Source of the DNA: a virus
Lineage: Duplodnaviria > Caudoviricetes
Length of the DNA stretch: 64,000 bases
Reading direction: 5' to 3' (one strand)
IMG/VR virus record: IMGVR_UViG_3300032329_000245
Span: 1,091 to 65,090 of that record
Shown: one piece after another, positions 7,114 to 25,290 of the stretch
Numbering within the stretch: position 1 is the stretch's first letter
Layout of the letters: every line of letters begins with the position of its first letter
Program-made: the position numbers and the translations under genes
The notes under the pieces: model-generated
What the model was told of the DNA's origin: nothing
What the model saw: only the letters and a program-made list of their open reading frames with translations
The model's database searches: none

Positions 7114-7302
7114 CTATACACTTATAAGTTCTTGAAAAACTTTTTTGGCATCCAAATAGGCTTTTGTTCTTTTATTAAAACCATACGACTCATAATTTAA
7201 ACCATATACTGTCAGACAGTATCCCCACCCATCAGTAAACAATGTAATCCGTAAATCACCATCCATAAGCACCAACAACCCTTTAAACTCTTCTTTCTTC
7301 AT
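7114..7302 (-). CDS. Small hypothetical protein containing an operator palindrome
   Basis: 62-aa ORF with SD; the palindrome is read as YCLTV. Confidence 0.5.
   Translation of the reverse strand: MKKEEFKGLLVLMDGDLRITLFTDGWGYCLTVYGLNYESYGFNKRTKAYLDAKKVFQELISV
7207..7221. promoter_or_regulatory. Palindrome TACTGTC-A-GACAGTA (copy 1)
   Basis: Exact 7-1-7 inverted repeat, intragenic, ~100 bp upstream of the helicase start. Confidence 0.85.
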
Positions 7303-7323
7303 CTCTTCCCCGATGGCAAAGCC

Positions 7324-7459
7324 TTCAAAATCACTGTTTTGAATTTTTATTACACCTTACGGGTGTTATTCGGTTAGTTCCCTACGAACAAAGGATACTC
7401 GTGTGAAGGAGGAAAAACATAGTAACTAACTGACATGGTTATTATAACCCACTCATGCC
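7324..7459 (-). ncRNA. Candidate structured intergenic RNA
   Basis: Four stems in ~135 nt: TTCAAAA/TTTTGAA, ACACC/GGTGT, GTTAGTT/AACTAAC, GGCATG/CATGTC. Confidence 0.4.
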
Positions 7460-7477
7460 TTGGGGAGAAGCACTAAA

Positions 7478-7810
7478 TTACTTTTTCTTTTTTACAACTT
7501 TACGTTCTTTCTTGCTAACTTCTGAAACTAAGTTACCTTTTGAATCTCTTTTAAACGATCTGTTTTTAGCTTTACTTTGAACAGTATATCCGTCTTTATT
7601 ACTACCGCCTTTATCCAATGCTTTCTTGTGCGCTAAGTCTTTACCTTCACGACTCTCAGCAATCTTATCTTTATCTAATGGGCTATCAGGGTGTGTCTTA
7701 TCATAAGCCCTTCTTAAGCGTTGACGTTCCGCACGTCTATCATTTTCGTTACGCTTCTTTTGCATCTCGTATTCGTGAGCATATGGTCTAGGTGATTTAG
7801 TATATGGCAT
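7478..7810 (-). CDS. HNH-like basic protein (likely start ATG 7810)
   Basis: GKDLAHKKALDKGGSN...SKAKNRSF resembles a degenerate HNH core; Lys-rich. Confidence 0.5.
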   Translation of the reverse strand: MPYTKSPRPYAHEYEMQKKRNENDRRAERQRLRRAYDKTHPDSPLDKDKIAESREGKDLAHKKALDKGGSNKDGYTVQSKAKNRSFKRDSKGNLVSEVSKKERKVVKKKK

Positions 7811-7812
7811 GT

Positions 7813-8475
7813 TTATTTTCCGTTGTGATAGCAGTCTTTTACTGGACACCAACTACCGCAAGTAAAGTTTGGTTTAGGATTCCATACTTGTAATTCTATC
7901 GCTTTTTCAAGCTTTTTGGTATCCTCTAACCACCTAACCCAAGTCTTTTCATGTTCCTCACGAACGTATGCTGACTTAATAAAGTCCTTTGCAACTACAA
8001 AAAGCAAGCCAGCCTTTATCCTTTGTATTTCGGGGAAGTGTTTAAATATGGCTAGAGCAAGTAAATCTAATTGCTTTACATCCGCATACTTGGATGACTT
8101 TCCTGTCTTGTAATCAATAAGATGAGCCTTATCCCCATTAATAATCAATAAGTCAGGTATACCTCTCCACCACACATCTGCATCAAAGAACCCACATGGT
8201 TCTAGATTCTCGGTTAATCCCATTCGGTGTTCACAAAGACGTTGTCCTTCTATCTTAGAAAGTGGCTCAAGTAGCTCACGCATAAACGCAAACTTTTCAG
8301 GTATTGGTATATCCTTTAGAAAGTAATCTTCGGCGGCTTTATGTACTTCCTTACCATAACGCATGGGTTCGGACTCAGGCTCAACGATATCCTTTGCTAT
8401 TTTAAGTCTGTAATATTTGTGCGGACATTGTTTAAACATATCCAAGCTTGAGTACGACCACGCATATTTAGGCAT
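7813..8475 (-). CDS. PD-(D/E)XK (RecB/Cas4-like) exonuclease
   Basis: SYSSLDMFKQCPHKY, G..VH, GIPDLL...IDYKTGK, QL.L.AL, C-terminal C..CP..DC. Confidence 0.85.
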   Translation of the reverse strand: MPKYAWSYSSLDMFKQCPHKYYRLKIAKDIVEPESEPMRYGKEVHKAAEDYFLKDIPIPEKFAFMRELLEPLSKIEGQRLCEHRMGLTENLEPCGFFDADVWWRGIPDLLIINGDKAHLIDYKTGKSSKYADVKQLDLLALAIFKHFPEIQRIKAGLLFVVAKDFIKSAYVREEHEKTWVRWLEDTKKLEKAIELQVWNPKPNFTCGSWCPVKDCYHNGK

Positions 8476-10289
8476 TAACAGTCTCCATAACTTTCACCTA
8501 TTCCTGATTCACAATCTAATGGTAATGTACTAGCCCATTCGGGTCTCCAACGCATACATTCCTCTACGTATTTCTGCGCTTCTTCCGCTTCTTCTTTCGG
8601 TGCTATGCAAGCTACTGCATCATGCACTGTCAATACTACTGAGTACTTACTGCCGATTTTTAACATCTGCTCAGCAATTACACACCGAGCGATAGCCTGA
8701 CATAAGTTCTCTACGACTTTTCCACCATATATTTTAACACTACCTTTACGAGTATCATAGACATATTGATACCCATCCTTCTTTAAATTAGGATAGTTTA
8801 GGTGAAGCCCACTAGGTAGTAGGAAGCCTGATGTTGTAAGGCTAAGTGCTTGTGGTTGATACCCAACATCGTAAGTCTTTTTATTTAAGAGCGAGCCTAA
8901 TGCGCTATTGGCATCATCCCATAACTCAGGTATTTTAGGATATGTTTCACGATAGACTTTAATGATACGGTCCGCTTCTTCTTCCTCAATATCTGTCCCA
9001 AAAGTTTTTAATTGTATTTGGAATTTCTTGCTACCCATGCCATAACCTGCGCCTAGAATCGTTGTCTTTCCTACAAACCGTTCTTCGGGAGTAACTTCTG
9101 ATATATCTTTTTGGTATATACTGCTTGCCATAATCTTGTACACGTCTTCTTTTCTTTCAAACGCATCTACCAAGTCGGTTTGACCTGCCAACCAAGCAAC
9201 AGTTCTAGCTTCGATCTGACTAGAATCGGCATCTATAATTACATAACCTTCAGGGGGTATGATAGCCCTCTTTAACTTGTTCTTATGGTTTCCCCTACTA
9301 GGCAGGTTTTGTAGGTTAATCTTGTCATCGCCACCCCATCTGCCAGTATGCGCTGCGTAATATTTTATGGGTACAGGTAGTTTCCCACGCTTGGCTATGT
9401 CAATGAATCTTTGGGTTCTTGTTTCTTCTAAAGTTGTTTTTGTACCAAGCCTCGCCGACACTAATGCTTGTACTTTTGGATTAGGATGAGTCGCCAGTTC
9501 CTTGAAAGCCTCATCGGTTTTGGCAAATGCCCATGCTTCCTTACTTGTACGTAAGGAGGTTTTCTTGGGGGGTTCTACACCTAGCGACATAAGCAATTCT
9601 GCAAACTTGTCGTTGGACATAAGCGTATCTTTATCCGCTACACATGCTTGTAATAAAGCTTCTTTTTTATCTTTAACATCTTCAAGATGTTGTTCTAACA
9701 ATGGTAGATTAAACTCTAGTTGGGGTTCTACAAACATCTTTAGAGTTGTGTTTATGACTTTAAGTTCCTTGTCAGGAAACCCTGCATTAATAAATATGTT
9801 AAACAACTTGTAGGTTAGGTCTACGTCATTCTTACAGTACTCACCATACTTTTCTAACTCATCATCTAAAAAGTCTAGTCTACGTTTACCTTTAGCATCT
9901 TCTACTTCTGTACCCTTGACACCGATCTCGTATCTTTCAGCCAATGTAGCCAAGCTACCACCTGCATCCACCCCATGTAAAGCACGAGCCATGCACAGTG
10001 TATCAAGATAGCCACGAGGCTTAATGCCAAAGTACCAATTAAGAATAGCACCATCGAACTGAGTGTTGTGAGCAAGTACCAAAGAATTTGTAAAATCATG
10101 GTTGTTCCTTAAAAACTCCTTTGTGTTTTTCTTGTCACCGCTATACCAAACGGTGTCCTTGTCATTGACTTTTATGCCAACACCTATAACTTCAAACTTA
10201 TCATCTCTGATGTACTCCTCTGTTGTATGGCTTCGCAAACCATATTCTTTACTGTAATACGTTTCAAAGTCTATTGTTATTATGTTCAT
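8475..10289 (-). CDS. polA: DNA polymerase family A with 3'-5' exonuclease domain
   Basis: IDFET exo I; HTGRW, NLQNLP, DSSQIEAR (motif A), KTTILGAGYG (motif B), VHD (motif C). Confidence 0.93.
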   Translation of the reverse strand: MNIITIDFETYYSKEYGLRSHTTEEYIRDDKFEVIGVGIKVNDKDTVWYSGDKKNTKEFLRNNHDFTNSLVLAHNTQFDGAILNWYFGIKPRGYLDTLCMARALHGVDAGGSLATLAERYEIGVKGTEVEDAKGKRRLDFLDDELEKYGEYCKNDVDLTYKLFNIFINAGFPDKELKVINTTLKMFVEPQLEFNLPLLEQHLEDVKDKKEALLQACVADKDTLMSNDKFAELLMSLGVEPPKKTSLRTSKEAWAFAKTDEAFKELATHPNPKVQALVSARLGTKTTLEETRTQRFIDIAKRGKLPVPIKYYAAHTGRWGGDDKINLQNLPSRGNHKNKLKRAIIPPEGYVIIDADSSQIEARTVAWLAGQTDLVDAFERKEDVYKIMASSIYQKDISEVTPEERFVGKTTILGAGYGMGSKKFQIQLKTFGTDIEEEEADRIIKVYRETYPKIPELWDDANSALGSLLNKKTYDVGYQPQALSLTTSGFLLPSGLHLNYPNLKKDGYQYVYDTRKGSVKIYGGKVVENLCQAIARCVIAEQMLKIGSKYSVVLTVHDAVACIAPKEEAEEAQKYVEECMRWRPEWASTLPLDCESGIGESYGDC

Positions 10290-10795: not shown

Positions 10796-11121
10796 TTAAA
10801 CTCCTCCAAAAACTTAACAAGTTTTTTAAACTTAATACCTTCTGTAATGTATTTAACTCTAGCATCTTTTTTATCAGCGACTAGTTTAATTAGTTTCAAA
10901 TCTACAAGATGTTTTGTAATTCGTTTATGTACATTAGCAGGTGAGGCAATGTCGCTAAATTCTTTTATTGCATCCATGACTTTAAACATACGGTCTTCAG
11001 GATGGTAACTTGCCCAAACTATCTGCAACCTACCTAGCATGATTAAGTCTTTACCATCTATATTAAATTTATGTGCAACGTCTTCTATTACTATTGCTAA
11101 CTCGGCTACAATGCTATTCAT
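10792..11121 (-). CDS. Putative winged-helix (MarR-like) DNA-binding protein
   Basis: SPANVHKRITKHLVDLKLIKLVADKKDARVKYI matches a MarR wing pattern (D.R.K). Confidence 0.6.
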   Translation of the reverse strand: MNSIVAELAIVIEDVAHKFNIDGKDLIMLGRLQIVWASYHPEDRMFKVMDAIKEFSDIASPANVHKRITKHLVDLKLIKLVADKKDARVKYITEGIKFKKLVKFLEEFK

Positions 11122-11332
11122 TTTCTTTCCTTAATGGTACGTAGTACCTCTGTGGTTTAGTTTTATTTTTATATAACTTTATCTTCTTTGCTTCATACAA
11201 CTCGTTTACATAATCCCTTGCTGTCATGTAGTGTACCTGCATTTCCTTAGACAACTCCTTTATGGTCTTTGGTTTACCATGCACCCTACGCATCAAGTCG
11301 GCATAACGTATTCGGCGAGGTTCAGTCTTCAT
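11114..11332 (-). CDS. Small winged-HTH DNA-binding protein
   Basis: KTIKELSKEMQVHYMTARDYVNELYEAKKI is an HTH pattern; ATG lies 1 nt from a palindrome. Confidence 0.65.
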   Translation of the reverse strand: MKTEPRRIRYADLMRRVHGKPKTIKELSKEMQVHYMTARDYVNELYEAKKIKLYKNKTKPQRYYVPLRKENE

Positions 11333-11622
11333 GTACTGTCAGACAGTATTTGCTTCACACTATTTACTGTCTCCTCGTTAACCCATAAAGCCACACCCCC
11401 TGACTTCTCAATATCTGCCAAAGCTTTGTACTGAAGAGCCGTAGGTTTGTTATCCCCTGCCTTACACTCGATACCATAAAACTTACCTTTATGACAAGCC
11501 ACAAGATCAGGCACACCTGATTTACCATAACCACCTGTTGCGGGCATGAAGTAGTATGCTCCAACTTCTTTTAAAATCTTCTTTACTTTCTCTTTTACTT
11601 TTGCTTCGGGAGTCATTAGCAC
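11329..11622 (-). CDS. VRR-NUC / Holliday-junction-resolvase-like nuclease
   Basis: TPEAKVK, GVPDLVAC, GIECKA, PTALQ pattern. Confidence 0.8.
   Translation of the reverse strand: MLMTPEAKVKEKVKKILKEVGAYYFMPATGGYGKSGVPDLVACHKGKFYGIECKAGDNKPTALQYKALADIEKSGGVALWVNEETVNSVKQILSDST
11334..11348. promoter_or_regulatory. Palindrome TACTGTC-A-GACAGTA (copy 2)
   Basis: Exact; encodes LSDS at the end of VRR-NUC and occupies the RBS position of the wHTH gene. Confidence 0.85.
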
Positions 11623-11804
11623 CTGCCATCATCTATGTCATCTATTTCTTTTTTTAATTTCAAAGTATTGTGCAGTTCAATTAATTGATATTTTAAGTCT
11701 TGGTTAGTCCTGACCGTATCATCTAATAGGGCTTTTAATTTCCTTAGTTCCGCTTGTAGGAATTTGTTTTCCGCTAATATCATGCGTATGTGTTCTTCCG
11801 TCAT
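11616..11804 (-). CDS. Small coiled-coil hypothetical protein
   Basis: Heptad-rich 62-aa ORF. Confidence 0.5.
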   Translation of the reverse strand: MTEEHIRMILAENKFLQAELRKLKALLDDTVRTNQDLKYQLIELHNTLKLKKEIDDIDDGRC

Positions 11805-11937
11805 TTAACTTCTGCCTTTCTATTGATCGTTTAATTAACTCTTTCACAACTTCTTTAAAATCTCTGTCATCATATCCATAAGGTATATGCGAGGTATCCC
11901 AAGGGTTTATTTCAAGTTCTTCTTCAGGGGTTTCCAT
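11719..11937 (-). CDS. Hypothetical protein
   Basis: 72-aa ORF with an 86-nt overlap with the downstream ORF; uncertain. Confidence 0.35.
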   Translation of the reverse strand: METPEEELEINPWDTSHIPYGYDDRDFKEVVKELIKRSIERQKLNDGRTHTHDISGKQIPTSGTKEIKSPIR

Positions 11938-12124
11938 GCTTCTGTAACAATTTAACTAACTGTTTAAGTTCCAGTATTTCAGTATTACGTTCATCTATCT
12001 TACGCATGAGACTGTCTAAGGTTTTATGTAGGATTACGTTGTCAGATGTGCGTTGCCTGTGGTCTGCCAACATCATTTCATAGAGACGGTTTGCTATATC
12101 AATTTGTTTTTCTATTGGGTTCAT
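11924..12124 (-). CDS. Small coiled-coil hypothetical protein
   Basis: Coupled ORF, 66 aa. Confidence 0.5.
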   Translation of the reverse strand: MNPIEKQIDIANRLYEMMLADHRQRTSDNVILHKTLDSLMRKIDERNTEILELKQLVKLLQKHGNP

Positions 12125-12444
12125 TTCTTTTTCCCTTTTGTTGCTTTAATGGCTACAGGCGGTGCTTGTTCGGCAACTTTTTTTGCTTCTCTATGCATCT
12201 CCATTGCTTCTGCGGATAGTGATTCTAACTTCTCTATGTATATGTCAAGCATCTCAGCACAACCCCATAATGCATTACCATGATGATTGTCACTAACACC
12301 CTCTGCAATTACTTCGATCATTGACTTAATTGAATCAATCCTAAAACCAATTGTTTCAATATCATTTGCTAACTTCCATATACTCATACTTCCTCCTATT
12401 TTGACTTTGTCTACAACATCCCAGTTAATCCAGTACTTTTCCAT
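12121..12444 (-). CDS. Hypothetical protein
   Basis: 107-aa ORF with SD AAGGAAG. Confidence 0.55.
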   Translation of the reverse strand: MEKYWINWDVVDKVKIGGSMSIWKLANDIETIGFRIDSIKSMIEVIAEGVSDNHHGNALWGCAEMLDIYIEKLESLSAEAMEMHREAKKVAEQAPPVAIKATKGKKK

Positions 12445-12503
12445 ACTTCTTCCTTAAAATGTTTAACAAACCACACATTTATTCAAAATTCAAGAATACC
12501 GAA

Positions 12504-12573
12504 CGGTAAACTTTTTCGTACACTCATACACTTTTTCATACAAAATTACCTATCGGTAAACTTTTTCGTACAC
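12504..12573. repeat. 20-bp direct repeat CGGTAAACTTTTTCGTACAC x2 with a partial third copy between
   Basis: Copies at 12504-12523 and 12554-12573; ACTTTTTCATACA at 12530-12542. Confidence 0.8.
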
Positions 12574-12589
12574 CATTGCATCTGCTAAT

Positions 12590-12781
12590 TCATTTGCAAT
12601 CATCTTCATCCCCCACAACAAAGTCCAAGTGTCCTTCAAACACAAACCCACAGCCACGCAAGAAGTCTTCAAAATGTAATACAACTTCACCTAATTCAGC
12701 AGTCTCAAACTCCATGCCAAAGTTAGCATGATGTTCTTCATATACTGTGTTGTTACGTTCTTTTGCAAATGTAAATATCAT
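12590..12781 (-). CDS. Small hypothetical phage protein
   Basis: 63-aa coupled ORF (FEDFLRGCGF motif). Confidence 0.55.
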   Translation of the reverse strand: MIFTFAKERNNTVYEEHHANFGMEFETAELGEVVLHFEDFLRGCGFVFEGHLDFVVGDEDDCK

Positions 12782-12966
12782 TTCTCACTCGCTTTCTTTA
12801 GTATTGCTCTTGCAAATTCATGTTTATCAACCACCCAATTTTGTAAATCACAATAAGGTCTTGCTACTTCTTCTATTTCTTCATCTGTTAGTTCACGATG
12901 ATAAGGATTTTGTTCGCCACAATTTTTACAAAAAGTTAATGTTCCATATGGTACAAAACTAGTCAT
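12778..12966 (-). CDS. Small protein, ELTD..I...FARAILKKASEK family (copy A)
   Basis: Last 39 nt identical to the end of the upstream gene. Confidence 0.6.
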   Translation of the reverse strand: MTSFVPYGTLTFCKNCGEQNPYHRELTDEEIEEVARPYCDLQNWVVDKHEFARAILKKASEK

Positions 12967-13262
12967 TTCTCACTCGCTTTCTTTAGTATTGCTCTTGCAA
13001 AAACAGAAATATCATCATTGCAATGTATAACCCATAGTTTGTATATTTCTTGGTCTGTTAGTTCACGCAATTTCAACGCTTCTATTTCAGCTTGTTGTTT
13101 AAAATGTCCAGTTTTCCACATTTCCAAATTTTCGTTTAATCGTTGATATTGGTCTAACAAATTTTCTATTTTTTGGGCTTGTTGACGTAGCATGGCAGAA
13201 ACTTGTTTACTATGAGCACAACAAGACCATTCATTTAAATCTGCTAGTTCATTCGCCGTCAT
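12963..13262 (-). CDS. Small protein, ELTD..I...FARAILKKASEK family (copy B; likely start 13262)
   Basis: Coiled coil plus the same C-terminal module. Confidence 0.6.
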   Translation of the reverse strand: MTANELADLNEWSCCAHSKQVSAMLRQQAQKIENLLDQYQRLNENLEMWKTGHFKQQAEIEALKLRELTDQEIYKLWVIHCNDDISVFARAILKKASEK

Positions 13263-13362
13263 TTCCCCACCCTTCAACCATATAAAGAATACCAAAAATT
13301 AAAATTAACCAGCAAACAACAAAGCCAAACATGCCAATAAAAAACCACAAAACGTCATTCAT
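13249..13362 (-). CDS. 37-aa membrane peptide (not in ORF track)
   Basis: MNDVLWFFIGMFGFVVCWLILIFGILYMVEGWGNDGE; SD GAGGAAG, coupled to neighbours. Confidence 0.45.
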   Translation of the reverse strand: MNDVLWFFIGMFGFVVCWLILIFGILYMVEGWGNDGE

Positions 13363-13532
13363 TTCTTCCTCATCTTTCTGCAATCTGCTTTCTCTTGTGG
13401 TGTGAAGTCAGGGCTAATCTCCGATAGTTCACAGTTCTTAATAATCCAATGAGTCTGCTTATCAGGTAACGATGCAAGCACCATCACAAACAGACATATA
13501 AATAAAGAAAATAAAAATGCAAATGTTTTCAT
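13359..13532 (-). CDS. 57-aa protein with N-terminal TM/signal segment (not in ORF track)
   Basis: MKTFAFLFSLFICLFVMVLASLPDK...CELSEISPDF...C; overlaps both neighbours by 4 nt. Confidence 0.5.
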   Translation of the reverse strand: MKTFAFLFSLFICLFVMVLASLPDKQTHWIIKNCELSEISPDFTPQEKADCRKMRKK

Positions 13533-13711
13533 AGCATTGCTTCCTCCATGTTCTTTAAAACATCTTTTTCCTTTTGTTGTTTAACATTCTTAAAAAATTT
13601 CATTGTCCAACCGTAAAACTTAACAAAGTGTTCTGCTTCTTCTTTGCGTTTAACTACACGCATATAACATCCTTCCTCGTCATATAGTCTGTACACATTC
13701 TTTCTCCTCAA
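13529..13711 (-). CDS. Small hypothetical protein
   Basis: 60-aa coupled ORF. Confidence 0.5.
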   Translation of the reverse strand: MRRKNVYRLYDEEGCYMRVVKRKEEAEHFVKFYGWTMKFFKNVKQQKEKDVLKNMEEAML

Positions 13712-13982
13712 TAAGTATTGGATTAGGTTTAGTTATATCAATTGTTGACCAACCCTGTGCATTGGTTATCTGCTTGTTAGATGCAATAGCTATCGCTTTC
13801 ATACGAGTATCAGCTTGCCATACATCAACAATTCTAGTAGCCGCATTGATTGCAACTTTTGCATTTTCTAAATTAACTTCGTTATTAATAGCAGAAGCCA
13901 TAATCCTTGACAACATCTCTATTAACTCTTGTGCGTTTTGAGGCGCATTAACTCTATTTTCTTGAAATCCTAACTTTGCCAT
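13680..13982 (-). CDS. Hypothetical helical protein
   Basis: 100-aa ORF in the operon. Confidence 0.55.
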   Translation of the reverse strand: MAKLGFQENRVNAPQNAQELIEMLSRIMASAINNEVNLENAKVAINAATRIVDVWQADTRMKAIAIASNKQITNAQGWSTIDITKPNPILIEEKECVQTI

Positions 13983-14451
13983 TTAAAACCCCTTTCATCT
14001 CTTCTGTTAAAATTTTTAATGTCCGTGCTTCACCTTTTAATTTTTTAAAGGTTTCTGTTTCCATATACTCACTTCTTTTATTAGAGCCTGATATCATCAA
14101 ACTTTTAAAATCGTCATACTCTAATCCACTTTTTTGTTGCGCCGTATAGAACGGTGTTTCCCAAGCGTTATCACTTACTTCTACAAACCCAACACCTAAC
14201 CTTCCATCAATACAAAAATTACCCTTAGTTCTATATTTACGAATAAACTTTGCGTTTACTACATTTAAATCTGCGTACAACGTCTTGTATATCTTTAAGT
14301 ATCTCCAGTAAATATGCTCAGCATATTCGTGTGGGCTTGCGCCTCTAAACACAACACGTTCTTCAGACAACAACTTCTCTATTTTGCTTTCTCCTTTTTT
14401 AACTTGTACTTGCCTCAATATATACCATAAAGGTATGCCCGTATGGTTCAT
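13954..14451 (-). CDS. Hypothetical protein
   Basis: 165-aa coupled ORF. Confidence 0.55.
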   Translation of the reverse strand: MNHTGIPLWYILRQVQVKKGESKIEKLLSEERVVFRGASPHEYAEHIYWRYLKIYKTLYADLNVVNAKFIRKYRTKGNFCIDGRLGVGFVEVSDNAWETPFYTAQQKSGLEYDDFKSLMISGSNKRSEYMETETFKKLKGEARTLKILTEEMKGVLNGKVRISRK

Positions 14452-14642: not shown

Positions 14643-14787
14643 AATTTTCCTTTTTGTTTCTTGTTACTAACATGGCATCGGCTACTAAATATGCCTCTTC
14701 CGACAGTTCACCATAATCTTGACTAATTATCAACCCCATCATGGCAAACCCCGCAAACAAATCTCTTAAATATTTTTCGTCATCCAT
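14584..14787 (-). CDS. Small hypothetical phage protein
   Basis: LRDLFAGFAM...AY.VADAML, a pattern common in small phage ORFs. Confidence 0.5.
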   Translation of the reverse strand: MDDEKYLRDLFAGFAMMGLIISQDYGELSEEAYLVADAMLVTRNKKENYAEKGIAGIRKKKPTRKMD

Positions 14788-18605: not shown

Positions 18606-18843
18606 GCTCTTCTCCTTTTAAAATTGAAATACTGTCTGACAGTATTGGGTATAACTCTTTGGGTAGTAGGGTTAGTTGATGTCTTCTATATGGGTTTTCC
18701 TCGGATACTCCATACCACTTTTGAGAATCATATTTACCATTAACTATACCCCCCTGAATAAGCCGTATACGAGCAACCGTATTATTACTAGTCAGTACCC
18801 AATCCCCTACATTTAAAACAACCACTGATTCTCGGTCGCCCAT
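18595..18843 (-). CDS. Small SH3/KOW-like protein (paralog of 15937..16200)
   Basis: GDWV...LTLLP...ILSDSI. Confidence 0.55.
   Translation of the reverse strand: MGDRESVVVLNVGDWVLTSNNTVARIRLIQGGIVNGKYDSQKWYGVSEENPYRRHQLTLLPKELYPILSDSISILKGEEHGK
18630..18644. promoter_or_regulatory. Palindrome TACTGTC-T-GACAGTA (copy 5)
   Basis: Exact; intragenic, 24 bp before the vWA start. Confidence 0.85.
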
Positions 18844-19916
18844 TTGACAAACTCCTTGTTAGATACTGCCATCGCTTGCTTACTTGATGACTTGACTAGA
18901 CTACGAGCAAACAACGCTTGCAACTCTTTATCTAATCTCTCTGCATACTTGAGCCACTTGGGTAATGTCTCCTTGTCCACCTTAGTAATAGCCGAGAACA
19001 CTAGAATACATTTAGCAACTGCATCATCAGGTAACTTGGCTTTCTCAGGTGTACGGATAATATCTTCCCATGTAGGTAACTTGTCCACCACCGTAAAGAA
19101 CGCTTGCATATCACGAGCCGCACTCTCACCGATAGTACCTGCCAATGCACTGATAGTCACACCCTCACCCAATAACAAACGCTTCTTAGCAATGTGACTT
19201 GCTTTCTCTAGACTACGAGGTGTAACGAAAGCCGTCTGACCTGCCTTAGTAGGATTGAAGATGTATGGATTATCTTTCTGTGACTTGTCTGTGTATGATG
19301 CTAACGAATGATCGAACTGTTTAACCCAAGCAAGAATCTCAGGTGCAATATCATTCTCCAAAGCCCAAGCACCCCATGAGTCTGCATCTACCGAACCATC
19401 TGCGTTAAACCCTGCGTGTGGTTTGCGTACTGTTACAAAGCAAACACGATTACGAGCATGAGCCTCAAGACTGTCACCCACCCCATCTGTTGCTAAGTTT
19501 GTTGTACCAAAGACTATCGAACCTTCAGGCAATCTCATATCACCAATACGCTTTTCTAACATGAGAGTAAGCAATACATTCTTGACTGACTTCATAGCCT
19601 TACCAATCTCATCTAGCATAACGATGACAGGCTTACCTGATTGGAATTTAAATCTAGCGTTAGGTGCGAACCGAGTTACCTTTAAGTCCTCGCTGATTGT
19701 TTCTGTGTATGGTAAAGCAAAGTCACCCAAGTCTAGCAATGTACAATCTATATATGCCAACTCATAACTAGGGAATCTCTTAGCCAATACACCTAGCATA
19801 GATGACTTACCTATGCCCGGCTCACCTTGACCAATTACCGTTACATCAGAACCAACTGTTGCGATTGTGTTTGCAAACTCGTTGAGGGATAAAGAACTAC
19901 CGAACTGAATACTCAT
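18813..19916 (-). CDS. MoxR/dynein-related AAA+ ATPase
   Basis: Walker A GEPGIGKS, Walker B MLDEIG, TTN sensor, ARNR finger, TPRS. Confidence 0.85.
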   Translation of the reverse strand: MSIQFGSSLSLNEFANTIATVGSDVTVIGQGEPGIGKSSMLGVLAKRFPSYELAYIDCTLLDLGDFALPYTETISEDLKVTRFAPNARFKFQSGKPVIVMLDEIGKAMKSVKNVLLTLMLEKRIGDMRLPEGSIVFGTTNLATDGVGDSLEAHARNRVCFVTVRKPHAGFNADGSVDADSWGAWALENDIAPEILAWVKQFDHSLASYTDKSQKDNPYIFNPTKAGQTAFVTPRSLEKASHIAKKRLLLGEGVTISALAGTIGESAARDMQAFFTVVDKLPTWEDIIRTPEKAKLPDDAVAKCILVFSAITKVDKETLPKWLKYAERLDKELQALFARSLVKSSSKQAMAVSNKEFVKWATENQWLF

Positions 19917-19938
19917 ATAATACTCCTTTGTTGTTGTG

Positions 19939-19953
19939 TACTGTCTGACAGTA
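19939..19953. promoter_or_regulatory. Palindrome TACTGTC-T-GACAGTA (copy 6)
   Basis: Exact; lies between a consensus promoter and the AAA+ RBS. Confidence 0.88.
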
Positions 19954-19985
19954 CGATTGATTAAATACTTCTACTTATTAATACT

Positions 19986-20014
19986 ATTATACTACTTATA
20001 TACATCTATGTCAA
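19986..20014 (-). promoter_or_regulatory. Perfect sigma70 promoter
   Basis: TTGACA-17bp-TATAAT. Confidence 0.85.
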
Positions 20015-20019
20015 TGCTA

Positions 20020-20982
20020 TCATCTAACATTACTTCTTGGTTTATCACCAACTACAACTTCTCTTGATGTTGTTATTTCATCTTTGTTTGCTTTATCAAT
20101 GATGTAGTCTATCCTACGAACTACTGACTGATAGTTGTATCTACACTCATAAATATCTTCTGTGTATTTAGTTTCCGTACCATCTCCATATTTACGAGTG
20201 CGTTCTTCGGTTCTTATCTTTTGTCTATCTAAATCCTGTGTACCTGAACAAATCATGCATAACGCATTTAAGAATCTATCAATCTTTTCATCAATATCTT
20301 CATCAGGTCTATTAGTAATGTATTCATAAACCATCTTAGCCGTTGCTTCACTCATCTGATAACCCATGTTGTATCTTGTGACAGAATTAGCACCAACCTC
20401 AAAATACTCGTTACTCCAAGCGTTATCATTGTATTTCTTGTACTTGCCTACAACTTCTTCACGCAACCAACCATCAGCAAGTTTAATCATGTTACGAGCA
20501 TAGTCTCTGAACTCACTAACTGCACTACGAAACTCTTTAGACTTGCTACGATCTTTTACTTTCTGTGTAACTGTATTGGACTCGTTTGTGTAGTAAGAAT
20601 CTGTGGCTTTGTTATACTTGACTACGAATGTTTGACTTGCTTGGATTGGATATACCTTACCGTCTTTCATCTCAACCCATATCTTAGAATATCTTTTATA
20701 ACAATGTACACCCCAAGGGCTATGTATAGAAATAAACTGAGCAGATGATACGCTTTCCCAACTTCCAATGTTTAGGTGTACATCACCGTTTTCAGCATAC
20801 ATAACGCAGTCGGTTTGATACAGATGAGCCCCATACATGATGCCAGTTTCTGTTTCTCTACGAACTACTTGTTCCCAATCTCTGCGTCTATCACCCAATG
20901 GTCTGATGTCATCTACACGACCACGAATAGGTTTAGTGTTTTCATATCTTTCTTTGTATCTGTTGTAATATTCAATGCTCAT
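20020..20982 (-). CDS. Hypothetical early protein
   Basis: 320-aa ORF with SD AAAGGAG. Confidence 0.75.
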   Translation of the reverse strand: MSIEYYNRYKERYENTKPIRGRVDDIRPLGDRRRDWEQVVRRETETGIMYGAHLYQTDCVMYAENGDVHLNIGSWESVSSAQFISIHSPWGVHCYKRYSKIWVEMKDGKVYPIQASQTFVVKYNKATDSYYTNESNTVTQKVKDRSKSKEFRSAVSEFRDYARNMIKLADGWLREEVVGKYKKYNDNAWSNEYFEVGANSVTRYNMGYQMSEATAKMVYEYITNRPDEDIDEKIDRFLNALCMICSGTQDLDRQKIRTEERTRKYGDGTETKYTEDIYECRYNYQSVVRRIDYIIDKANKDEITTSREVVVGDKPRSNVR

Positions 20983-21014
20983 GGTAATACTCCTTTGTTG
21001 TTTAGTTGATTAAA

Positions 21015-21029
21015 TACTGTCTGACAGTA
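21015..21029. promoter_or_regulatory. Palindrome TACTGTC-T-GACAGTA (copy 7)
   Basis: Exact; intergenic, 32 bp before the 20982 start. Confidence 0.88.
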
Positions 21030-21038
21030 TGTTGTTAG

Positions 21039-21467
21039 TTACTCTTTCCAATCTACTTCTCTACCTTCTACTTCTGCCATGCTTTTAAAATCTGATTTAC
21101 TGAATGGTGTTTCGAACGAACTATATGTATAGAAGCCGTCATCAGGTACAAACTCACCACCACTATCATCATTTTGTATATCACCTTCTTCCTCACCTAT
21201 ACGGATAAACCTCCAACCTGACCTATCCTCATAGTGTTCTTCTGCAAACTGCATTAACTGATGGTGTGCATCAACATCTTTGTACCCGTCATACCATTTA
21301 GTGTGGTCTGCATAGAATTCTATCGTTGTATGTCCATCTAGTATTTGACACTCTTGCAATGCGTTGTACAAATTACCACCATGCGTTTTAACCATAGCAA
21401 CAAACTCATCACGAGTTTCCTCACCATCAAAGTTAATAATGTATGCTACTTCGCTTCTATATCCCAT
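21039..21467 (-). CDS. Hypothetical early protein
   Basis: 142 aa, MGYRSEV...RFIRIGEEEGD. Confidence 0.7.
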   Translation of the reverse strand: MGYRSEVAYIINFDGEETRDEFVAMVKTHGGNLYNALQECQILDGHTTIEFYADHTKWYDGYKDVDAHHQLMQFAEEHYEDRSGWRFIRIGEEEGDIQNDDSGGEFVPDDGFYTYSSFETPFSKSDFKSMAEVEGREVDWKE

Positions 21468-21651
21468 TTCGTTTCTCCTTTAACATTCTTAATACATGAC
21501 GATATGCACTCCTATCTTCGTTGTCTAAATCATCTATGCAGTTCTCCATACACGCAAGTGCTTCTTCGATTGTGAAATACCCTTGTGTATATTGGTAGTC
21601 TTTGACTGTTGCTAGTGCTGATTCATCTGTGTGATAAAACGGTGTTCCCAT
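21457..21651 (-). CDS. Small hypothetical early protein
   Basis: 64 aa with SD AGGAG. Confidence 0.55.
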   Translation of the reverse strand: MGTPFYHTDESALATVKDYQYTQGYFTIEEALACMENCIDDLDNEDRSAYRHVLRMLKEKRNGI

Positions 21652-21654
21652 TAT

Positions 21655-21882
21655 TTATTCTCCTTTATAAACAACAAAGCATTGAATAATACGATATGTA
21701 TCCGGTCTATCGCTTTCGTTAGCGTATGCCTGTGCTTCTTCCAATGTGCTGAATGTGTCCTCTGTTACCCAACCTGCATCATCTTCGTCACCCCAATACA
21801 TCTGTGCTTCAAACCACGGTTTGCTTACATTCATCATCTCACTCTCCTTCAAAAGTTTTAATCCATTCAACATGCACCTCAC
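21655..21882 (-). CDS. Small hypothetical early protein (true start probably near 21837)
   Basis: FSTLEEAQAY motif; SD GAAGGAGAG upstream of an internal ATG. Confidence 0.5.
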   Translation of the reverse strand: MRCMLNGLKLLKESEMMNVSKPWFEAQMYWGDEDDAGWVTEDTFSTLEEAQAYANESDRPDTYRIIQCFVVYKGE

Positions 21883-22021
21883 TCGGTGCTACCCATTTTG
21901 CTTCACGCTTCCAATCAGGTTTATCTATTGGATAGTTCACGAGCATTCCCCACTCACCCAAGCGTACCAACTTCATAAACTCAGGCTTGTCAGGCTTACG
22001 GTACAACTTCACTACTCTCAT
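21839..22021 (-). CDS. Small hypothetical early protein (likely start 22021, MRVVKL)
   Basis: SD GGGGTG; palindrome 14 bp upstream. Confidence 0.55.
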   Translation of the reverse strand: MRVVKLYRKPDKPEFMKLVRLGEWGMLVNYPIDKPDWKREAKWVAPSEVHVEWIKTFEGE

Positions 22022-22022
22022 A

Positions 22023-22196
22023 TCACACCCCCAAATACTGTCGGACAGTATCAATAGCAGTTACAGGACACTCGGCACTTACTATCATCTTTCGATCGAC
22101 ACCTGCGACAACATAACTTACCTCATGCAATACACGCTTCTTGGTATCATCTTGCTCGATACACTTGGCTTGGAAATACTCAGGTATTGGATTCAT
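22023..22196 (-). CDS. 57-aa hypothetical protein (not in ORF track)
   Basis: MNPIPEYFQAKC...AIDTVRQYLGV; coupled to the upstream stop; the palindrome is read as TVRQY. Confidence 0.5.
   Translation of the reverse strand: MNPIPEYFQAKCIEQDDTKKRVLHEVSYVVAGVDRKMIVSAECPVTAIDTVRQYLGV
22036..22050. promoter_or_regulatory. Palindrome TACTGTC-G-GACAGTA (copy 8)
   Basis: Exact. Confidence 0.85.
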
Positions 22197-22450
22197 TTAA
22201 GCCCCCTTATGATTAATAGTGCTATACATAGTGCGATTGCGATTAGTGGTATACCCCAACAAATAAACTCAGAGATAAACCTATGTAAGTCAGTCCATTC
22301 ATCATCACCCTCTATCCATGACGCATACAATGGGTCGGTATCTTTAAATGCTTCACTAGAAGTTCTGTGAAACTTGTTGTCATTTACAAAGTCTTTGATG
22401 TCATCACCTTCGTATGGTATTGCTCGTTTAATTAGTTTGTGTTGTTGCAT
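22193..22450 (-). CDS. Small protein with C-terminal TM helix
   Basis: FICWGIPLIAIALCIALLIIRGLK. Confidence 0.55.
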   Translation of the reverse strand: MQQHKLIKRAIPYEGDDIKDFVNDNKFHRTSSEAFKDTDPLYASWIEGDDEWTDLHRFISEFICWGIPLIAIALCIALLIIRGLK

Positions 22451-22718
22451 CTTGCTTCTCCTTCTTTGGTTGTGGTTTAGGTGTTAATAAATAAAAGTAT
22501 GGATTGAACTCTCGTATTGTTTCTATCTTCTCAGCCAATGTAGCACCTGAAAGTAGTCGGCTAAGTGTATTGCGTTTGTAATCATCTGCTATCTTTTGCT
22601 TTAGTTTCTCCTCCTCTTTAAGTTGTTTAGCAAGTAGTTGCTCAGGTGTTAATTCAGGCTTAGGCTTTTTAGTCCGTACCATTGTTGTTACCTTGTCTAG
22701 TGAGTATTTCGATTTCAT
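22428..22718 (-). CDS. Small hypothetical early protein
   Basis: 96 aa, coupled. Confidence 0.55.
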   Translation of the reverse strand: MKSKYSLDKVTTMVRTKKPKPELTPEQLLAKQLKEEEKLKQKIADDYKRNTLSRLLSGATLAEKIETIREFNPYFYLLTPKPQPKKEKQDATTQTN

Positions 22719-22930
22719 GTTGTCCTCTTGGGGTTAAGTTGTTTAAGTGCTTCTAGGTCTGTGATTAGCATGTAGTTGCTTTTATTTATTGGTGCTATTG
22801 TGTATGTCTTTCGCTTTGCCAACTTTTCACCACATGCTAGGCAGGTATTGTATCCTAAGTTTTTACGGCTTTTCAAGTAGTACTCTGTGCAGTCATCGCT
22901 GACCATTGCTGTGCATAAATATTTCATCAT
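22715..22930 (-). CDS. Small Zn-finger-like early protein
   Basis: C-x6-C...CLAC; SD AAAGGAG. Confidence 0.6.
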   Translation of the reverse strand: MMKYLCTAMVSDDCTEYYLKSRKNLGYNTCLACGEKLAKRKTYTIAPINKSNYMLITDLEALKQLNPKRTT

Positions 22931-23138
22931 CTTCTCCTTTGTGTTGGTACTGCATTAAAAAACTTAAGCGAAGAGCCTGACAAATCAAGCCCTCCTATAA
23001 ATCTTCTACGCTAGTTGTGAAATTATTGATACGACCCTCTGCTATTTAGGCAGTTCTTGTCGGAGGTTAGGGGTCTTGGTGTATATGTACTGCGTGGCAT
23101 AAGTGGTTTAGGGCTATCAGGGTTTTGCTCATATCTGA

Positions 23139-23153
23139 TACTGTCAGACAGTA
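23139..23153. promoter_or_regulatory. Palindrome TACTGTC-A-GACAGTA (copy 9)
   Basis: Exact; noncoding. Confidence 0.85.
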
Positions 23154-23521
23154 TTGCTACCTAAAGGGAATATATAAACTCTAAACATCTTCTACAATAC
23201 ATATATACATAGGGATACTACTTAGTTCACATAACTACTTTTGATTTTCGTCATGCATAGTGTTGGATTTTTTGACTCTAACGTGCTTGCTATTTATATT
23301 GATTCTTGATGCTTTCGTGTATATACAATGTATATACTTTACTTACACTTCATCATTGTCGGCTATATCACATGAGCATAACCCATGCTTCAACCATTCT
23401 CACGCTTCTTACTTATAGTGGTCTGTTTCCCACAGTCGTTACCTCTACCATACGAACCTACACCTACCCTATACCTAGTGCGTTATGACTAGGACATTTA
23501 AACAAGTTTTTAAAGAACGAA

Positions 23522-23536
23522 TACTGTCGGACAGTA
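23522..23536. promoter_or_regulatory. Palindrome TACTGTC-G-GACAGTA (copy 10)
   Basis: Exact; ~45 bp downstream of a perfect -10. Confidence 0.85.
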
Positions 23537-23580
23537 TTTGAGTGGCACGACCAATCTCGCTTTACCCACTCTATACATCT

Positions 23581-23609
23581 ATTATAACATTATGTTAGTC
23601 CTGTGTCAA
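23581..23609 (-). promoter_or_regulatory. Perfect sigma70 promoter
   Basis: TTGACA-17bp-TATAAT, bracketed by palindromes 10 and 11. Confidence 0.85.
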
Positions 23610-23652
23610 GCCCTTTGGTTTTGTGAGGCATGATGCATTGGGCTTGGGTTCG

Positions 23653-23667
23653 TACTGTCTGACAGTA
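23653..23667. promoter_or_regulatory. Palindrome TACTGTC-T-GACAGTA (copy 11)
   Basis: Exact; 43 bp upstream of the -35. Confidence 0.85.
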
Positions 23668-23685
23668 TGTGCATCTCTTTCGGCT

Positions 23686-24087
23686 TTATGGGGTTTTCTT
23701 TTCGAGACGCTTTATTACGGACTCAACTGCTTGCAAAATAAAGTCGCCAGTTCCCAACTCAAAGTCATTAGCCCATTTCTTTATTGCATCTAATTTATCG
23801 TCAGGTATGTTTAGGGTTACTTCATTGGGATTGGCTACTATGTTCTCGTTTGATGCATCTTGCTTCTTATATTTACCTGCGTTCAGTCGTTGGGTTGAGA
23901 TTAGGTCTGTACCTCGTTTGCCCCTTGTATATCTTCTATATAGTGTTTCGTATGGAATGTCGTGCATCTTTGCCCATTCGTGCAATGGTTTTCTTTCACC
24001 GTTGATGGTTTCGCATATGTAATGCTTCTCATCTTTCTCACGCTTGCGTTCTTCGAATGTATTATCAATCATACCAATTCCTTTCAT
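23686..24087 (-). CDS. Putative transcription regulator (HTH-like N-part plus RHH-like C-part)
   Basis: INGERKPLHEWAKMHDIPYETLYRRYTRG; VTLNIPDDKLDAIKKWAN..G.GDFILQAV. Confidence 0.6.
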   Translation of the reverse strand: MKGIGMIDNTFEERKREKDEKHYICETINGERKPLHEWAKMHDIPYETLYRRYTRGKRGTDLISTQRLNAGKYKKQDASNENIVANPNEVTLNIPDDKLDAIKKWANDFELGTGDFILQAVESVIKRLEKKTP

Positions 24088-24105
24088 AGTTAAGTTGGTT
24101 TGTTA

Positions 24106-24114
24106 AGTATAGCA
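24106..24114 (-). promoter_or_regulatory. Extended -10 promoter
   Basis: TGC-TATACT on the minus strand; the -35 position is overlapped by palindrome 12. Confidence 0.5.
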
Positions 24115-24122
24115 TGATTAAA

Positions 24123-24137
24123 TACTGTCTGACAGTA
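24123..24137. promoter_or_regulatory. Palindrome TACTGTC-T-GACAGTA (copy 12)
   Basis: Exact; 35 bp before the regulator start. Confidence 0.85.
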
Positions 24138-24173: not shown

Positions 24174-24480
24174 GTTCACTGATAGAAGAACGAGGTTGAA
24201 GCCAGTTTTTACAAGCCTTGCAGGGATAAATGACTAATTTGTTCACTAGTGAACGCCAAATACACGCCCCTAAAAAACTTACTAAGCAGTACTGTCAGAC
24301 AGTATTTTATTTAAGAGTTGTTCTGTTGTTAGTACAGTAAAAAAAGATAGGCTTATATATTATTTTTGAGTGAACTTGTGAACACTATAATGAACATGAA
24401 CCTGAGAGCCTTATGCCTAAAGGGAAATTAAGTTCATTCTTCTGTTCACTGATGAGTGAACACGCTTGGAACGAGTGAAC
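24174..24480. repeat. Cluster of GTTCACT/AGTGAAC heptamers
   Basis: Copies at 24174, 24241, 24248, 24369, 24444, 24455 and 24474, plus near-matches; two pairs form inverted repeats. Confidence 0.7.
24290..24304. promoter_or_regulatory. Palindrome TACTGTC-A-GACAGTA (copy 13)
   Basis: Exact; noncoding. Confidence 0.85.
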
Positions 24481-24621
24481 GAACAAACTCACTTACTTTC
24501 ACCCACTCGCCTACCTGCCAAGAAGTTTTATTTTGTCTCGTGCGTGTCATGCGTTTAAAGGCTTTTGTTAAGTCGGCTTCGCCGACCTAGATGACACCAG
24601 TTCCCTAAAAAATTTTAGGCG

Positions 24622-24672
24622 AAAAAAAAGACCTCATAAAGAGGTCTTGAATGATAAGGGGCTTTCGCCCCT
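24622..24672 (-). terminator. Tandem hairpins / intrinsic terminator after 24676..25170
   Basis: AGGGGC-GAAA-GCCCCT, then AAGACCTC/GAGGTCTT followed by a U-run on the minus strand. Confidence 0.7.
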
Positions 24673-24675
24673 CGT

Positions 24676-25170
24676 TTAGTTCCCTTCGAACTCGTCGATT
24701 GCGTCAATCAGGAAAGCCACTAATTCGGCGTATTGTTCACGCTTGCCCTCTAGTACATCACGCAAACCCTTTGCAAAATCTTCAACACTTGTATCCTTAG
24801 CGATAGTGAGTTTAACTGCAGAATCTTTGCCGTCATCTGATTTAGTAGTGTTCGCACCCTTTTTCTTAGAATCACGATAAGCGTTCATAGAGAAAGCGAC
24901 ACCCTCATTAACGGCACGACGGAAAGCAGTCGCATAATTCTTAATGGTTTGCTCGGCTTTACCATGTGACGCAAGGGTTTCAGTAAAGCGAATCATAACG
25001 GCACAACCTGATTTTACTGTACCGAGTTTTGCACCCTTAAGCAGTTTGTGTAATGCTTGGCAATTAGAATCAATACCTGCCTGTGCCGAACCTACTGCGA
25101 TAATACTCTCGGCTGTTTCGATTGCTAATTGTTCTTGCTTAGTTACTTTGTTGTTTGACTTTGTAGTCAT
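24676..25170 (-). CDS. Stand-alone immediate-early protein of unknown function (likely start 25170, MTTKSN)
   Basis: Has its own promoter, SD AAAGGAG and terminator. Confidence 0.7.
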   Translation of the reverse strand: MTTKSNNKVTKQEQLAIETAESIIAVGSAQAGIDSNCQALHKLLKGAKLGTVKSGCAVMIRFTETLASHGKAEQTIKNYATAFRRAVNEGVAFSMNAYRDSKKKGANTTKSDDGKDSAVKLTIAKDTSVEDFAKGLRDVLEGKREQYAELVAFLIDAIDEFEGN

Positions 25171-25231
25171 GATAAAACTCCTTTGTTTAAGGTATTGTCG
25201 TAGAGCGTTGTTGTCCCGAACCAATAACTAC

Positions 25232-25260
25232 ATTATTACATAGGTTTATGTTAATGTCAA
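25232..25260 (-). promoter_or_regulatory. sigma70 promoter
   Basis: TTGACA-17bp-AATAAT with a TG extension. Confidence 0.7.
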
Positions 25261-25275
25261 GTACCCCTATTAAAA

Positions 25276-25290
25276 TACTGTCAGACAGTA
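25276..25290. promoter_or_regulatory. Palindrome TACTGTC-A-GACAGTA (copy 14)
   Basis: Exact; 15 bp upstream of the -35; last copy before the late arm. Confidence 0.85.

Follow-up and report, generated by a model that had tools for sequence, protein, structure and literature searches.

The window analysed here is a 64-kb stretch of tailed-phage DNA (bases 1091–65090 of the IMG/VR record IMGVR_UViG_3300032329_000245) composed of two divergent arms, with early genes running from 1265 to 25170 on the minus strand and late genes from 25574 on the plus strand. The early arm encodes a DUF927 primase-helicase, an SNF2 helicase, a PD-(D/E)XK nuclease, a family A polymerase and a module of DUF3150, DUF2201-VWA and AAA proteins; the late genes are those for terminase, portal, capsid and tail. 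The element under study is a 15-bp perfect palindrome, TACTGTC-N-GACAGTA, that recurs through the early arm. A pattern scan of the window returned 14 exact matches to TACTGTCNGACAGTA, all of them in the minus-strand early arm (Table 1). The stem is identical in 14/14 copies and the centre base varies (A5/T6/G3 on the plus strand), exactly as an earlier sequence-only reading of this DNA had listed them.

The palindrome set is non-random and chance is excluded as its origin, as the earlier reading had argued from the expected copy number: 100 dinucleotide-preserving shuffles of the window gave no match at all. A scan of the whole 64 kb with two mismatches allowed added no further site, so that the 39-kb late arm, in which no copies had been seen by eye, is without any even at this tolerance. 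The full 65,090-bp record, which has a 123-bp terminal repeat, contains the same 14 palindromes only, and just two orphan half-sites were found. Ten of the 14 copies extend to the 17-mer ATACTGTCNGACAGTAT, and the 19-bp duplex form of the site is AATACTGTCAGACAGTATT. Across 138 sites the flanks show a symmetric A-rich/T-rich extension and otherwise little information. The palindrome was also considered as one half of a composite promoter and rejected in that role, since no flank position beyond ±3 nt exceeds 0.25 bits in these 138 sites and no −10 or −35 partner lies at a fixed distance.

Four promoters match the sigma70 consensus at 11–12 of 12 positions (P1–P4, Table 1). They all lie in the early arm, on its minus strand, and none of this quality was found in the late arm. 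The first of them forms a self-contained unit with the first early gene, which encodes a protein of 164 amino acids (aa), and a terminator. None of the 14 palindromes overlaps the −35 or −10 hexamers of these promoters. Ten are intergenic, three lie over the last 2–5 codons of the upstream open reading frame (ORF) and one falls within a doubtful 62-aa ORF; eight of the 14 are found between 22.0 and 25.3 kb. Nine copies end 1–39 nt ahead of a likely start codon. The sequence-only reading had counted seven at 1–45 bp, and thus its point about proximity to gene starts stands with a corrected count. Its further remark that sites accompany consensus promoters also holds, with copies 5′ of P1 and P2 and 3′ of P2 and P3.

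Table 1. Promoters, first early transcription unit and palindromes, in the order in which the early arm is read (positions in the window)
Feature	Positions	Strand	Remarks
Palindrome, 15 nt upstream of the P1 −35	25276–25290		Centre at about −58; apparently outside the transcript
P1 early promoter, TTGACA-17-AATAAT	25232–25260	−	11/12, TG-extended; upstream of the candidate reader gene
First early gene, 164 aa, candidate reader	24676–25170	−	
Strong intrinsic terminator	24628–24648	−	Ends the one-gene P1 unit; surrounding 60 nt 87–88% identical in relatives
Palindrome in non-coding DNA past the terminator	24290–24304		
Palindrome ahead of a non-conserved 133-aa ORF	24123–24137		35 nt ahead of the ORF start
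Palindrome, 43 nt upstream of the P2 −35	23653–23667		
P2 early promoter	23581–23609	−	12/12 consensus, TG-extended; conserved in five genomes
Palindrome at about +38 to +52 of P2	23522–23536		45–48 nt from the −10 end in five genomes
Palindrome within the non-coding leader (~640 nt) of the P2 unit	23139–23153		
Palindrome over the last codons of a 57-aa ORF	22036–22050		14 nt ahead of ATG
Palindrome between the 142-aa and 320-aa genes	21015–21029		32 nt ahead of start; same junction in G001 and G005
P3 early promoter, ahead of the AAA ATPase gene	19986–20014	−	12/12 consensus
Palindrome at about +26 to +40 of P3	19939–19953		22 nt ahead of the AAA start
Palindrome ahead of the DUF2201 (metallopeptidase/VWA) gene	18630–18644		
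Palindrome ahead of the DUF3150 gene	17076–17090		Over the end of a conserved 55-aa ORF
Palindrome ahead of the 286-aa gene	16002–16016		
P4 early promoter	15110–15139	−	12/12 consensus; no adjoining palindrome
Palindrome in the last codons of a conserved 97-aa ORF	11334–11348		1 nt ahead of ATG (ATGA overlap)
Most distal palindrome	7207–7221		~100 nt upstream of the SNF2 helicase gene

Searching IMG/VR for exact matches to the pattern brought up many contigs in which it occurs several times. Four near-complete relatives, syntenic with the window, carry 11, 10, 9 and 5 exact copies, confined in each case to roughly 10 kb where the early arm begins. Despite a DNA identity of 69–74%, measured over the alignable blocks only, and shared early proteins that are 30–88% identical, the exact 15-mer recurs at the same junctions, so the position of the sites is conserved as well as their sequence. 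For example, the copy downstream of P2 keeps its spacing in 5/5 genomes compared (Table 1), and palindromes are also kept before the AAA, DUF2201, DUF3150 and 320-aa genes. The site upstream of P1 is present in the five genomes compared, exact in three and with one mismatch in two.

We then gathered 80 related loci by means of the conserved AAA protein (67–89% identity) and scanned them de novo for palindromes. About 12 palindrome classes emerged, each multi-copy and perfect in its own lineage and each placed at orthologous junctions. Six of them are TACTGTC-N-GACAGTA, TAATGTC-N-GACATTA, TACCGTC-N-GACGGTA, TATAGTC-N-GACTATA, TCAAGTC-N-GACTTGA and TTAAGTA-N-TACTTAA; further classes are ATTAACA-NN-TGTTAAT, GTTATCA-NN-TGATAAC, TAAAAAC directly followed by GTTTTTA, CCCGTA-N-TACGGG, TTCACAC-N-GTGTGAA and others. 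At the junction between the AAA and DUF2201 genes, examined in 79 relatives, most lineages place a palindrome of their own past the stop codon and ahead of the following ribosome-binding site; wherever a palindrome is present at this junction, it is of the lineage's own class. Scans of IMG/VR for the TAATGTC and TACCGTC types, which served as a background control only, gave almost only singletons among the matches listed. Copies that are identical within a genome and divergent between genomes point to a cis-site that co-evolves with a specific reader; judged from these sequences, DNA or RNA structure alone, or a host factor, would not explain lineage-specific palindromes.

Two natural recombinant pairs among the loci, representing two events, allow the reader to be mapped among the genes inside the loci. 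The members of the first pair, L154 and L182, share about 95% DNA identity from ~4.9 kb to the end of the loci, with AAA proteins 95% and zinc-ribbon proteins 94% identical. L154 has ten copies of TAAAAACGTTTTTA and L182 has sites of the TACTAAAC-N-GTTTAGTA type; within the 95%-identical part, the replacement at two orthologous junctions is confined to the palindrome itself. Over its first ~3.6 kb the L154 early arm bears no relation to that of L182, and this segment holds eight of the L154 sites together with a different first early gene.

The second pair, L190 and L198, is 85–94% identical in DNA and 97.6% identical in the AAA protein. Eight TCAAGTC-type sites in L190 face seven TATAGTC-type sites in L198, converted in place within near-identical flanks, and the site upstream of P1 has been converted along with the others. 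Only two shared proteins are strongly diverged between these genomes, the first early protein (52% identity) and the zinc ribbon (60%). The zinc ribbon is excluded because it is 94% identical in L154 and L182 despite their different palindromes, and with the first early protein differing in both pairs it is the first early gene that remains. The L190 first early protein is itself chimeric: the N-terminal part shows 79.5% identity to the L194 protein vs 40% to the L198 protein, and for the C-terminal 51 aa the identity to L198 is 92%. L194 carries the same palindrome as L190, yet its genome is distant (AAA 74%). The swap in this pair is limited to the N-terminal ~110 residues of the first early protein. 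Among 28 distinct first early proteins, pairs from genomes with different palindromes reach at most 48% identity in the N-terminal part and up to 92% in the C-terminal part. In all these comparisons, site specificity as read from sequence follows the N-terminal domain of the first early protein.

The first early protein of the window has at least 341 metagenome homologues, none with a Pfam domain or an informative name, and the ESM Atlas returned unnamed viral clusters only. An AlphaFold model built with 77 sequences (mean predicted local distance difference test score, pLDDT, 81) has three parts: a predicted N-terminal domain of three helices (residues 11–89, pLDDT ~90), a predicted disordered linker rich in Lys and Gly (residues 101–116), and a small, conserved C-terminal domain of two predicted helices with an acidic tail. 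The one hint of a known DNA-binding domain is a match to an integrase SAM-like domain (Phage_int_SAM_4) at residues ~61–86 in 9/77 homologues, with a best E value of 0.044 that is below the curated cut-off, and there was no recombinase among the fold matches listed for the protein. The predicted fold would thus speak neither for nor against nucleic-acid binding.

Two families of first early genes, c34 and c19, are unrelated to one another (hhalign probability 0.2). In five c19-bearing loci of the ATTAAC class (L155, L157, L169, L178 and L180) the first early gene itself holds the lineage palindrome twice (e.g. L155:3819–3833 and 4250–4265). One copy lies in the codons for a conserved I-N-T-V-N-K-W and one at the last codons, the site being overprinted on the coding sequence of the presumed reader.

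On this comparative evidence, the palindromes form a real, strongly selected cis-regulatory network whose phage-encoded, rapidly re-specified reader appears to map to the first early gene. The proposal of the sequence-only reading, that a phage-encoded and likely dimeric protein acts on the early arm, is thereby strengthened, in that the palindrome class switches together with one phage protein. On balance, we favour the view that the 14 palindromes are operators of a single phage-encoded, sequence-specific protein, most likely the 164-aa first early product, that would regulate transcription of the early arm, probably by a combination of autoregulation and roadblocks. We infer each of the three components of this view, namely direct binding, recognition of DNA rather than RNA, and repression. 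The second of these is suggested by two patterns. First, the stem is invariant and the centre free, with no wobble or compensatory variants, and the strand preference of the centre base is opposite in one relative (G002) to that in two others (G001 and G005); an invariant stem around a free, unoriented centre is the pattern expected of a dimer reading the major groove, unlike that of RNA binders that read a loop. Second, the conserved and co-converted site upstream of the P1 −35 lies outside the inferred transcript, which favours recognition of DNA.

We propose that the host RNA polymerase would initiate at the four consensus sigma70 promoters, and that the reader would be made first, from the self-contained P1 unit. 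Its variable N-terminal helical domain may read one 7-bp half-site, and the conserved C-terminal domain, joined through the flexible linker, may pair two copies or touch a conserved partner. The site just upstream of the P1 −35 would then provide autoregulation, and the reader would go on to fill double-stranded sites at gene junctions and, 26–52 nt past their starts, behind the other strong promoters. Once bound it could throttle or shut off transcription of the early arm by a stoperator-like roadblock.

Several observations weigh against this view of a DNA-binding operator protein. The candidate reader has no Pfam or PHROG family, helix-turn-helix (HTH) or recognised nucleic-acid-binding fold by profile and fold searches, and the best fold matches for two AlphaFold2 models (Z 6.0–6.4) are to three-helix chorismate-mutase-like bundles, no better than the noise expected of helical proteins. 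In some classes the spacing between half-sites differs among copies in one genome (TATAGTC with N0 in eight copies and N1 in 13; ATTAAC with N3 in 13, N4 in 102 and N5 in three), a variation that would be unusual for a rigid dimer and natural for hairpins. A flexible linker between specificity and pairing domains might tolerate differences of ±1 bp. In the ATTAAC class the centre of the palindrome contains a Shine–Dalgarno (SD) sequence, AGGAG, lying 7 nt ahead of the ATG; more generally in this class the centre is often AGGA with an ATG 2–4 nt past the palindrome, and copies with another centre usually have a separate SD. A centre that carries the SD makes the palindrome part of a translated mRNA, and a role at the RNA level is possible for this class. 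A repressor that is made first and blocks replication genes would also be an odd design for a phage that has no lysogeny genes. The mapping comes from only two natural experiments, and genes outside the loci may matter. While the c34 and c19 reader families associate perfectly with two motif families (43/43), this association is a single split of the AAA tree, confounded by descent, and is not independent evidence. Lastly, covariation of the predicted helix 73–89 with the palindrome is suggestive yet imperfect, as L496 keeps Thr with TAATGTC and the motif T-K-A-N occurs with two different palindromes; the same two observations weakened a Thr75-to-Val change that had looked promising as the specificity switch at n = 2.

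The alternative that deserves most weight, though we consider it unlikely, is that the same phage protein binds the palindrome as an RNA hairpin (6-bp stem, 3–4-nt loop), whether for nut/boxB-like antitermination, as a translational operator or as a signal for processing or stabilisation. Nearly all copies fall in transcribed DNA, 1–39 nt ahead of start codons and near ribosome-binding sites; loop length varies with the stem kept, and in the ATTAAC class the SD falls inside the loop. Like lambda N, the candidate reader is encoded by the first early gene, and the copy kept at +38 to +52 of a consensus promoter in five genomes resembles lambda nutL, which lies downstream of PL. However, the predicted hairpins are weak (−3.5 to −7.5 kcal/mol), and an invariant stem with a free loop and no G–U or compensatory variants is the opposite of what boxB or coat-protein operators display. 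The co-converted copy upstream of the first promoter is conserved where no early transcript is expected, and the reversed strand preference of the centre base in G002 vs G001 and G005 also counts against a hairpin.

Elements that work by structure alone, requiring no reader, seem improbable. As weak terminators, pause sites or stabilisers of mRNA 3′ ends they would suit the palindromes that come right after stop codons, often with a short T run. They could also be recombination micro-homologies at module boundaries, as with the T4 PeSL cassettes, which are module-boundary elements for recombination: the replaced L154 segment (L154:1300–4920) is flanked by palindrome copies at 1346 and 4902, and palindromes may serve as recombination junctions between modules too. 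However, a terminator scan called 0/14 sites, only two of the six stem pairs are G–C, and folding energies are low. Nor does structure account for the identity of 14/14 copies, for identity across relatives that are 70% identical, or for concerted replacement by another exact palindrome.

We attach very little probability to the palindromes being promoters of the N4 type, extruded as hairpins from supercoiled DNA and used by a virion RNA polymerase that the phage injects. In N4 the early promoters take the form of inverted repeats centred at −11 (PMC4496689), similar to what is seen here, and a 1827-aa virion protein that spans the record ends has a match (E 1e-20) to the N-terminal part of the PHROG named 'virion RNA polymerase'. 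That match covers only profile positions 191–538 of 3406, outside the polymerase domain; Pfam finds only LPD38 in the protein and there was no match among PDB sequences. A search for PF00940 gave no match, but the controls likewise had none. The loop region of N4 promoters is conserved and GC-rich, whereas the palindromes have a free centre (A/T/G/C) and an AT-rich stem. The SD inside the palindrome in relatives, together with the copy in the window that stands 1 nt before an ATG overlapping the upstream stop, indicates that translated mRNAs start upstream of the palindromes, which argues against promoters of this type. The arm is already served by consensus sigma70 promoters, and the mapping of specificity leads to the first early gene rather than to that of the virion protein.

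A function as replication-origin iterons or as partition or condensation sites is just as doubtful. Five copies do lie within ~1.7 kb of mostly non-coding DNA at the divergence of the arms, where the cumulative GC skew turns. The others track single gene junctions across 18 kb, with conservation evident at each junction compared, and no ParB-like gene was found among the early proteins scanned. The parS- or matS-like organising or packaging role that the sequence-only reading had entertained therefore finds no backing, as the sites track gene junctions, ribosome-binding sites and promoters. Least probable of all is a host regulator, LexA-like or other, that would tie early genes to host physiology: the half-site TACTGT equals the E. 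coli-type LexA half-site, a resemblance the earlier reading had noted, but the spacing is CTGT-N3-ACAG in 14/14 copies rather than N8, closely related phages with 98% identical neighbouring genes have different palindromes, and no enrichment of the extended motif was found in the 185,579 bacterial genomes scanned.

Among known systems, the closest likeness is to the stoperators of Cluster A mycobacteriophages (L5 gp71, Bxb1 gp69), tens of dispersed sites in short intergenic regions and mostly outside promoters, whose consensus is lineage-specific and co-varies with a phage protein, and where binding blocks elongation (PMC6550527). Here too there are many copies of one short site, mostly intergenic and outside promoters, with a consensus that differs by lineage and switches with a phage protein, in this case with the N-terminal domain of the first early protein. 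The stoperator analogy drawn by the sequence-only reading is thus an apt one. Unlike stoperators, which are 13-bp, asymmetric and oriented with transcription, the sites are perfect palindromes of 15–19 bp with no consistent strand preference and are confined to the early arm. Stoperators are read by an HTH immunity repressor of temperate phages, whereas the candidate reader has no recognisable HTH, and no integrase, resolvase or prophage relatives were found. The system is most like stoperator networks, yet it is not a member of that family.

A similar logic is seen in the conserved inverted repeats of phiC31, bound by c repressor isoforms, and the C1 operators of phage P1, in each of which many early-region copies of a ~17-bp site serve one phage repressor. 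The phiC31 sites are palindromic, and both phages are temperate with repressors of known families. To our knowledge, lineage-by-lineage replacement of the sites together with a domain-swapped reader has not been described for either. With lambda N and boxB the palindromes share a first early gene product, a 15-nt dyad a few tens of nt past an early promoter, and lineage-specific pairs; lambda nut differs in having two sites and a conserved loop that is read, against 14 sites, a free loop and one conserved copy upstream of a promoter here. N4, a podovirus, likewise has short perfect inverted repeats of similar size in its early region and a giant virion protein, but it has three such promoters with a conserved GC-rich centre, whereas here Pfam, PHROG and PDB sequence comparisons found no polymerase domain in the virion protein, sigma70 promoters are present and palindromes lie inside translated mRNAs. 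The start-associated sequences of Cluster K mycobacteriophages are reportedly a repeated short motif that directly precedes many start codons; the motif is asymmetric and goes with translation starts. Proximity to start codons is shared with them, and the ATTAAC-class palindrome carries an SD, but several copies are far from starts and one lies 5′ of a promoter. For LexA boxes, intrinsic terminators, N4 promoters and nut sites alike, the palindromes lack at least one of the defining features tested.

Dispersed networks under a single repressor are known mainly from temperate actinophages (L5/Bxb1) and from phage P1, phiC31 being a further temperate actinophage with such sites. If the operator reading is true, the window adds a case from a different, uncultivated phage family in which nothing points to lysogeny, the sites are palindromes instead of oriented elements and the reader belongs to no known family. 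Rather more tentatively, a virulent-looking phage family of ~65 kb might run its early programme through stoperator-like perfect palindromes and an undescribed modular DNA-binding reader, combining a new specificity fold with a conserved partner domain by way of a flexible linker, whose specificity has been re-set repeatedly. Some of these re-settings would have come about through a swapped N-terminal domain, after which all sites in the genome were converted in concert, and the outcome would be a natural library of orthogonal protein–operator pairs. At least 12 exact site variants and two near-isogenic switched pairs, in one of which a single N-terminal domain has been swapped, make up a series in which it becomes testable how a regulator and tens of sites change specificity together, and which could be a source of short orthogonal protein–operator pairs for synthetic biology. 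Should the RNA reading hold instead, the palindromes would be an unusually large nut-like or translational-operator regulon.

Other early proteins were considered as readers and set aside. The ORFs adjoining sites within 11114–24137 are poor candidates, the best candidate lying outside this stretch. A 133-aa ORF (23686–24087, minus strand) has a site on both sides and weak HTH_psq and HNH-like matches, but G001, G002, G003 and G005 retain the motif and lack this ORF. It resembles the DNA-binding part of phage HNH endonucleases (PHROG 3377, E 2e-6) and looks like an inserted moron. The 71-aa zinc ribbon (22715–22930, minus strand), with four cysteines, is found in 58/80 related loci across all palindrome classes and has no class-specific columns; it is the second most diverged protein between L190 and L198, and might either work together with the reader as its partner or act as a general transcription factor. 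A 64-aa protein (14448–14642, minus strand) with an HTH_3 match above the cut-off is kept across several palindrome classes, and its recognition helix varies widely among genomes with an identical palindrome. It reads like sigma70 region 4.2 alone (..TQEEVA..LG..RQTV..IEK.ALRKIK..) and may be a stand-alone mimic of sigma region 4 or one half of a split sigma factor for late genes. For the 97-aa, 286-aa, 320-aa, AAA, DUF2201 and DUF3150 proteins, class-discriminating columns are either absent or conservative only.

As to host and lifestyle, the remark of the sequence-only reading that no integrase is visible was borne out, and no resolvase was found either. No relatives of the AAA gene were found among 185,579 genomes of bacteria and archaea; in these genomes the 19-mer form of the palindrome turned up only as seven singletons in unrelated taxa, approximately the number expected by chance by our own estimate. 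The consensus sigma70 promoters and AGGAG ribosome-binding sites fit many bacteria. Searches of cultured phages by megablast, and by tblastn with the reader and the virion protein, gave no match. By terminase (54% identity) the nearest cultured phages are the pelagiphages HTVC023P/027P and 023Pt_psg01, which have a different early layout; no multi-copy palindromes were found in the first 17–18 kb of the HTVC023P and 023Pt_psg01 records, the stretch that holds the replication genes.

Four further features of the window were recorded. The 1827-aa ORF on the plus strand runs from 60528 to 64000 and on through the record start to 1–1044, so that it closes the late arm across the record ends; with LPD38 at its C-terminus, the protein looks like a polyvalent injected protein, and ~1000 residues in its middle have no assignment. 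The trio of DUF3150, DUF2201 (metallopeptidase and VWA) and AAA_5 ATPase genes (16197–19916, minus strand) is the most conserved early module of the phage family, with AAA proteins up to 89% identical. The P2 leader (22931–23574, minus strand) comprises ~640 nt without a credible ORF before the zinc-ribbon gene, and contains two palindromes and a terminator-like hairpin at 22970–22995. Rfam and tRNA scans of the non-coding site cluster gave no match, and the leader would be either a long leader or a non-coding RNA of no known kind. Lastly, a G-rich element with GGGG runs spaced 1–3 nt apart (~25291–25330) lies just outside the palindrome upstream of P1, between the divergent arms; a late promoter, an origin and a packaging signal are among the possibilities for it, and it is kept at the same place in G001, G002, G003, G005, L190 and L198, even where the flanks differ.

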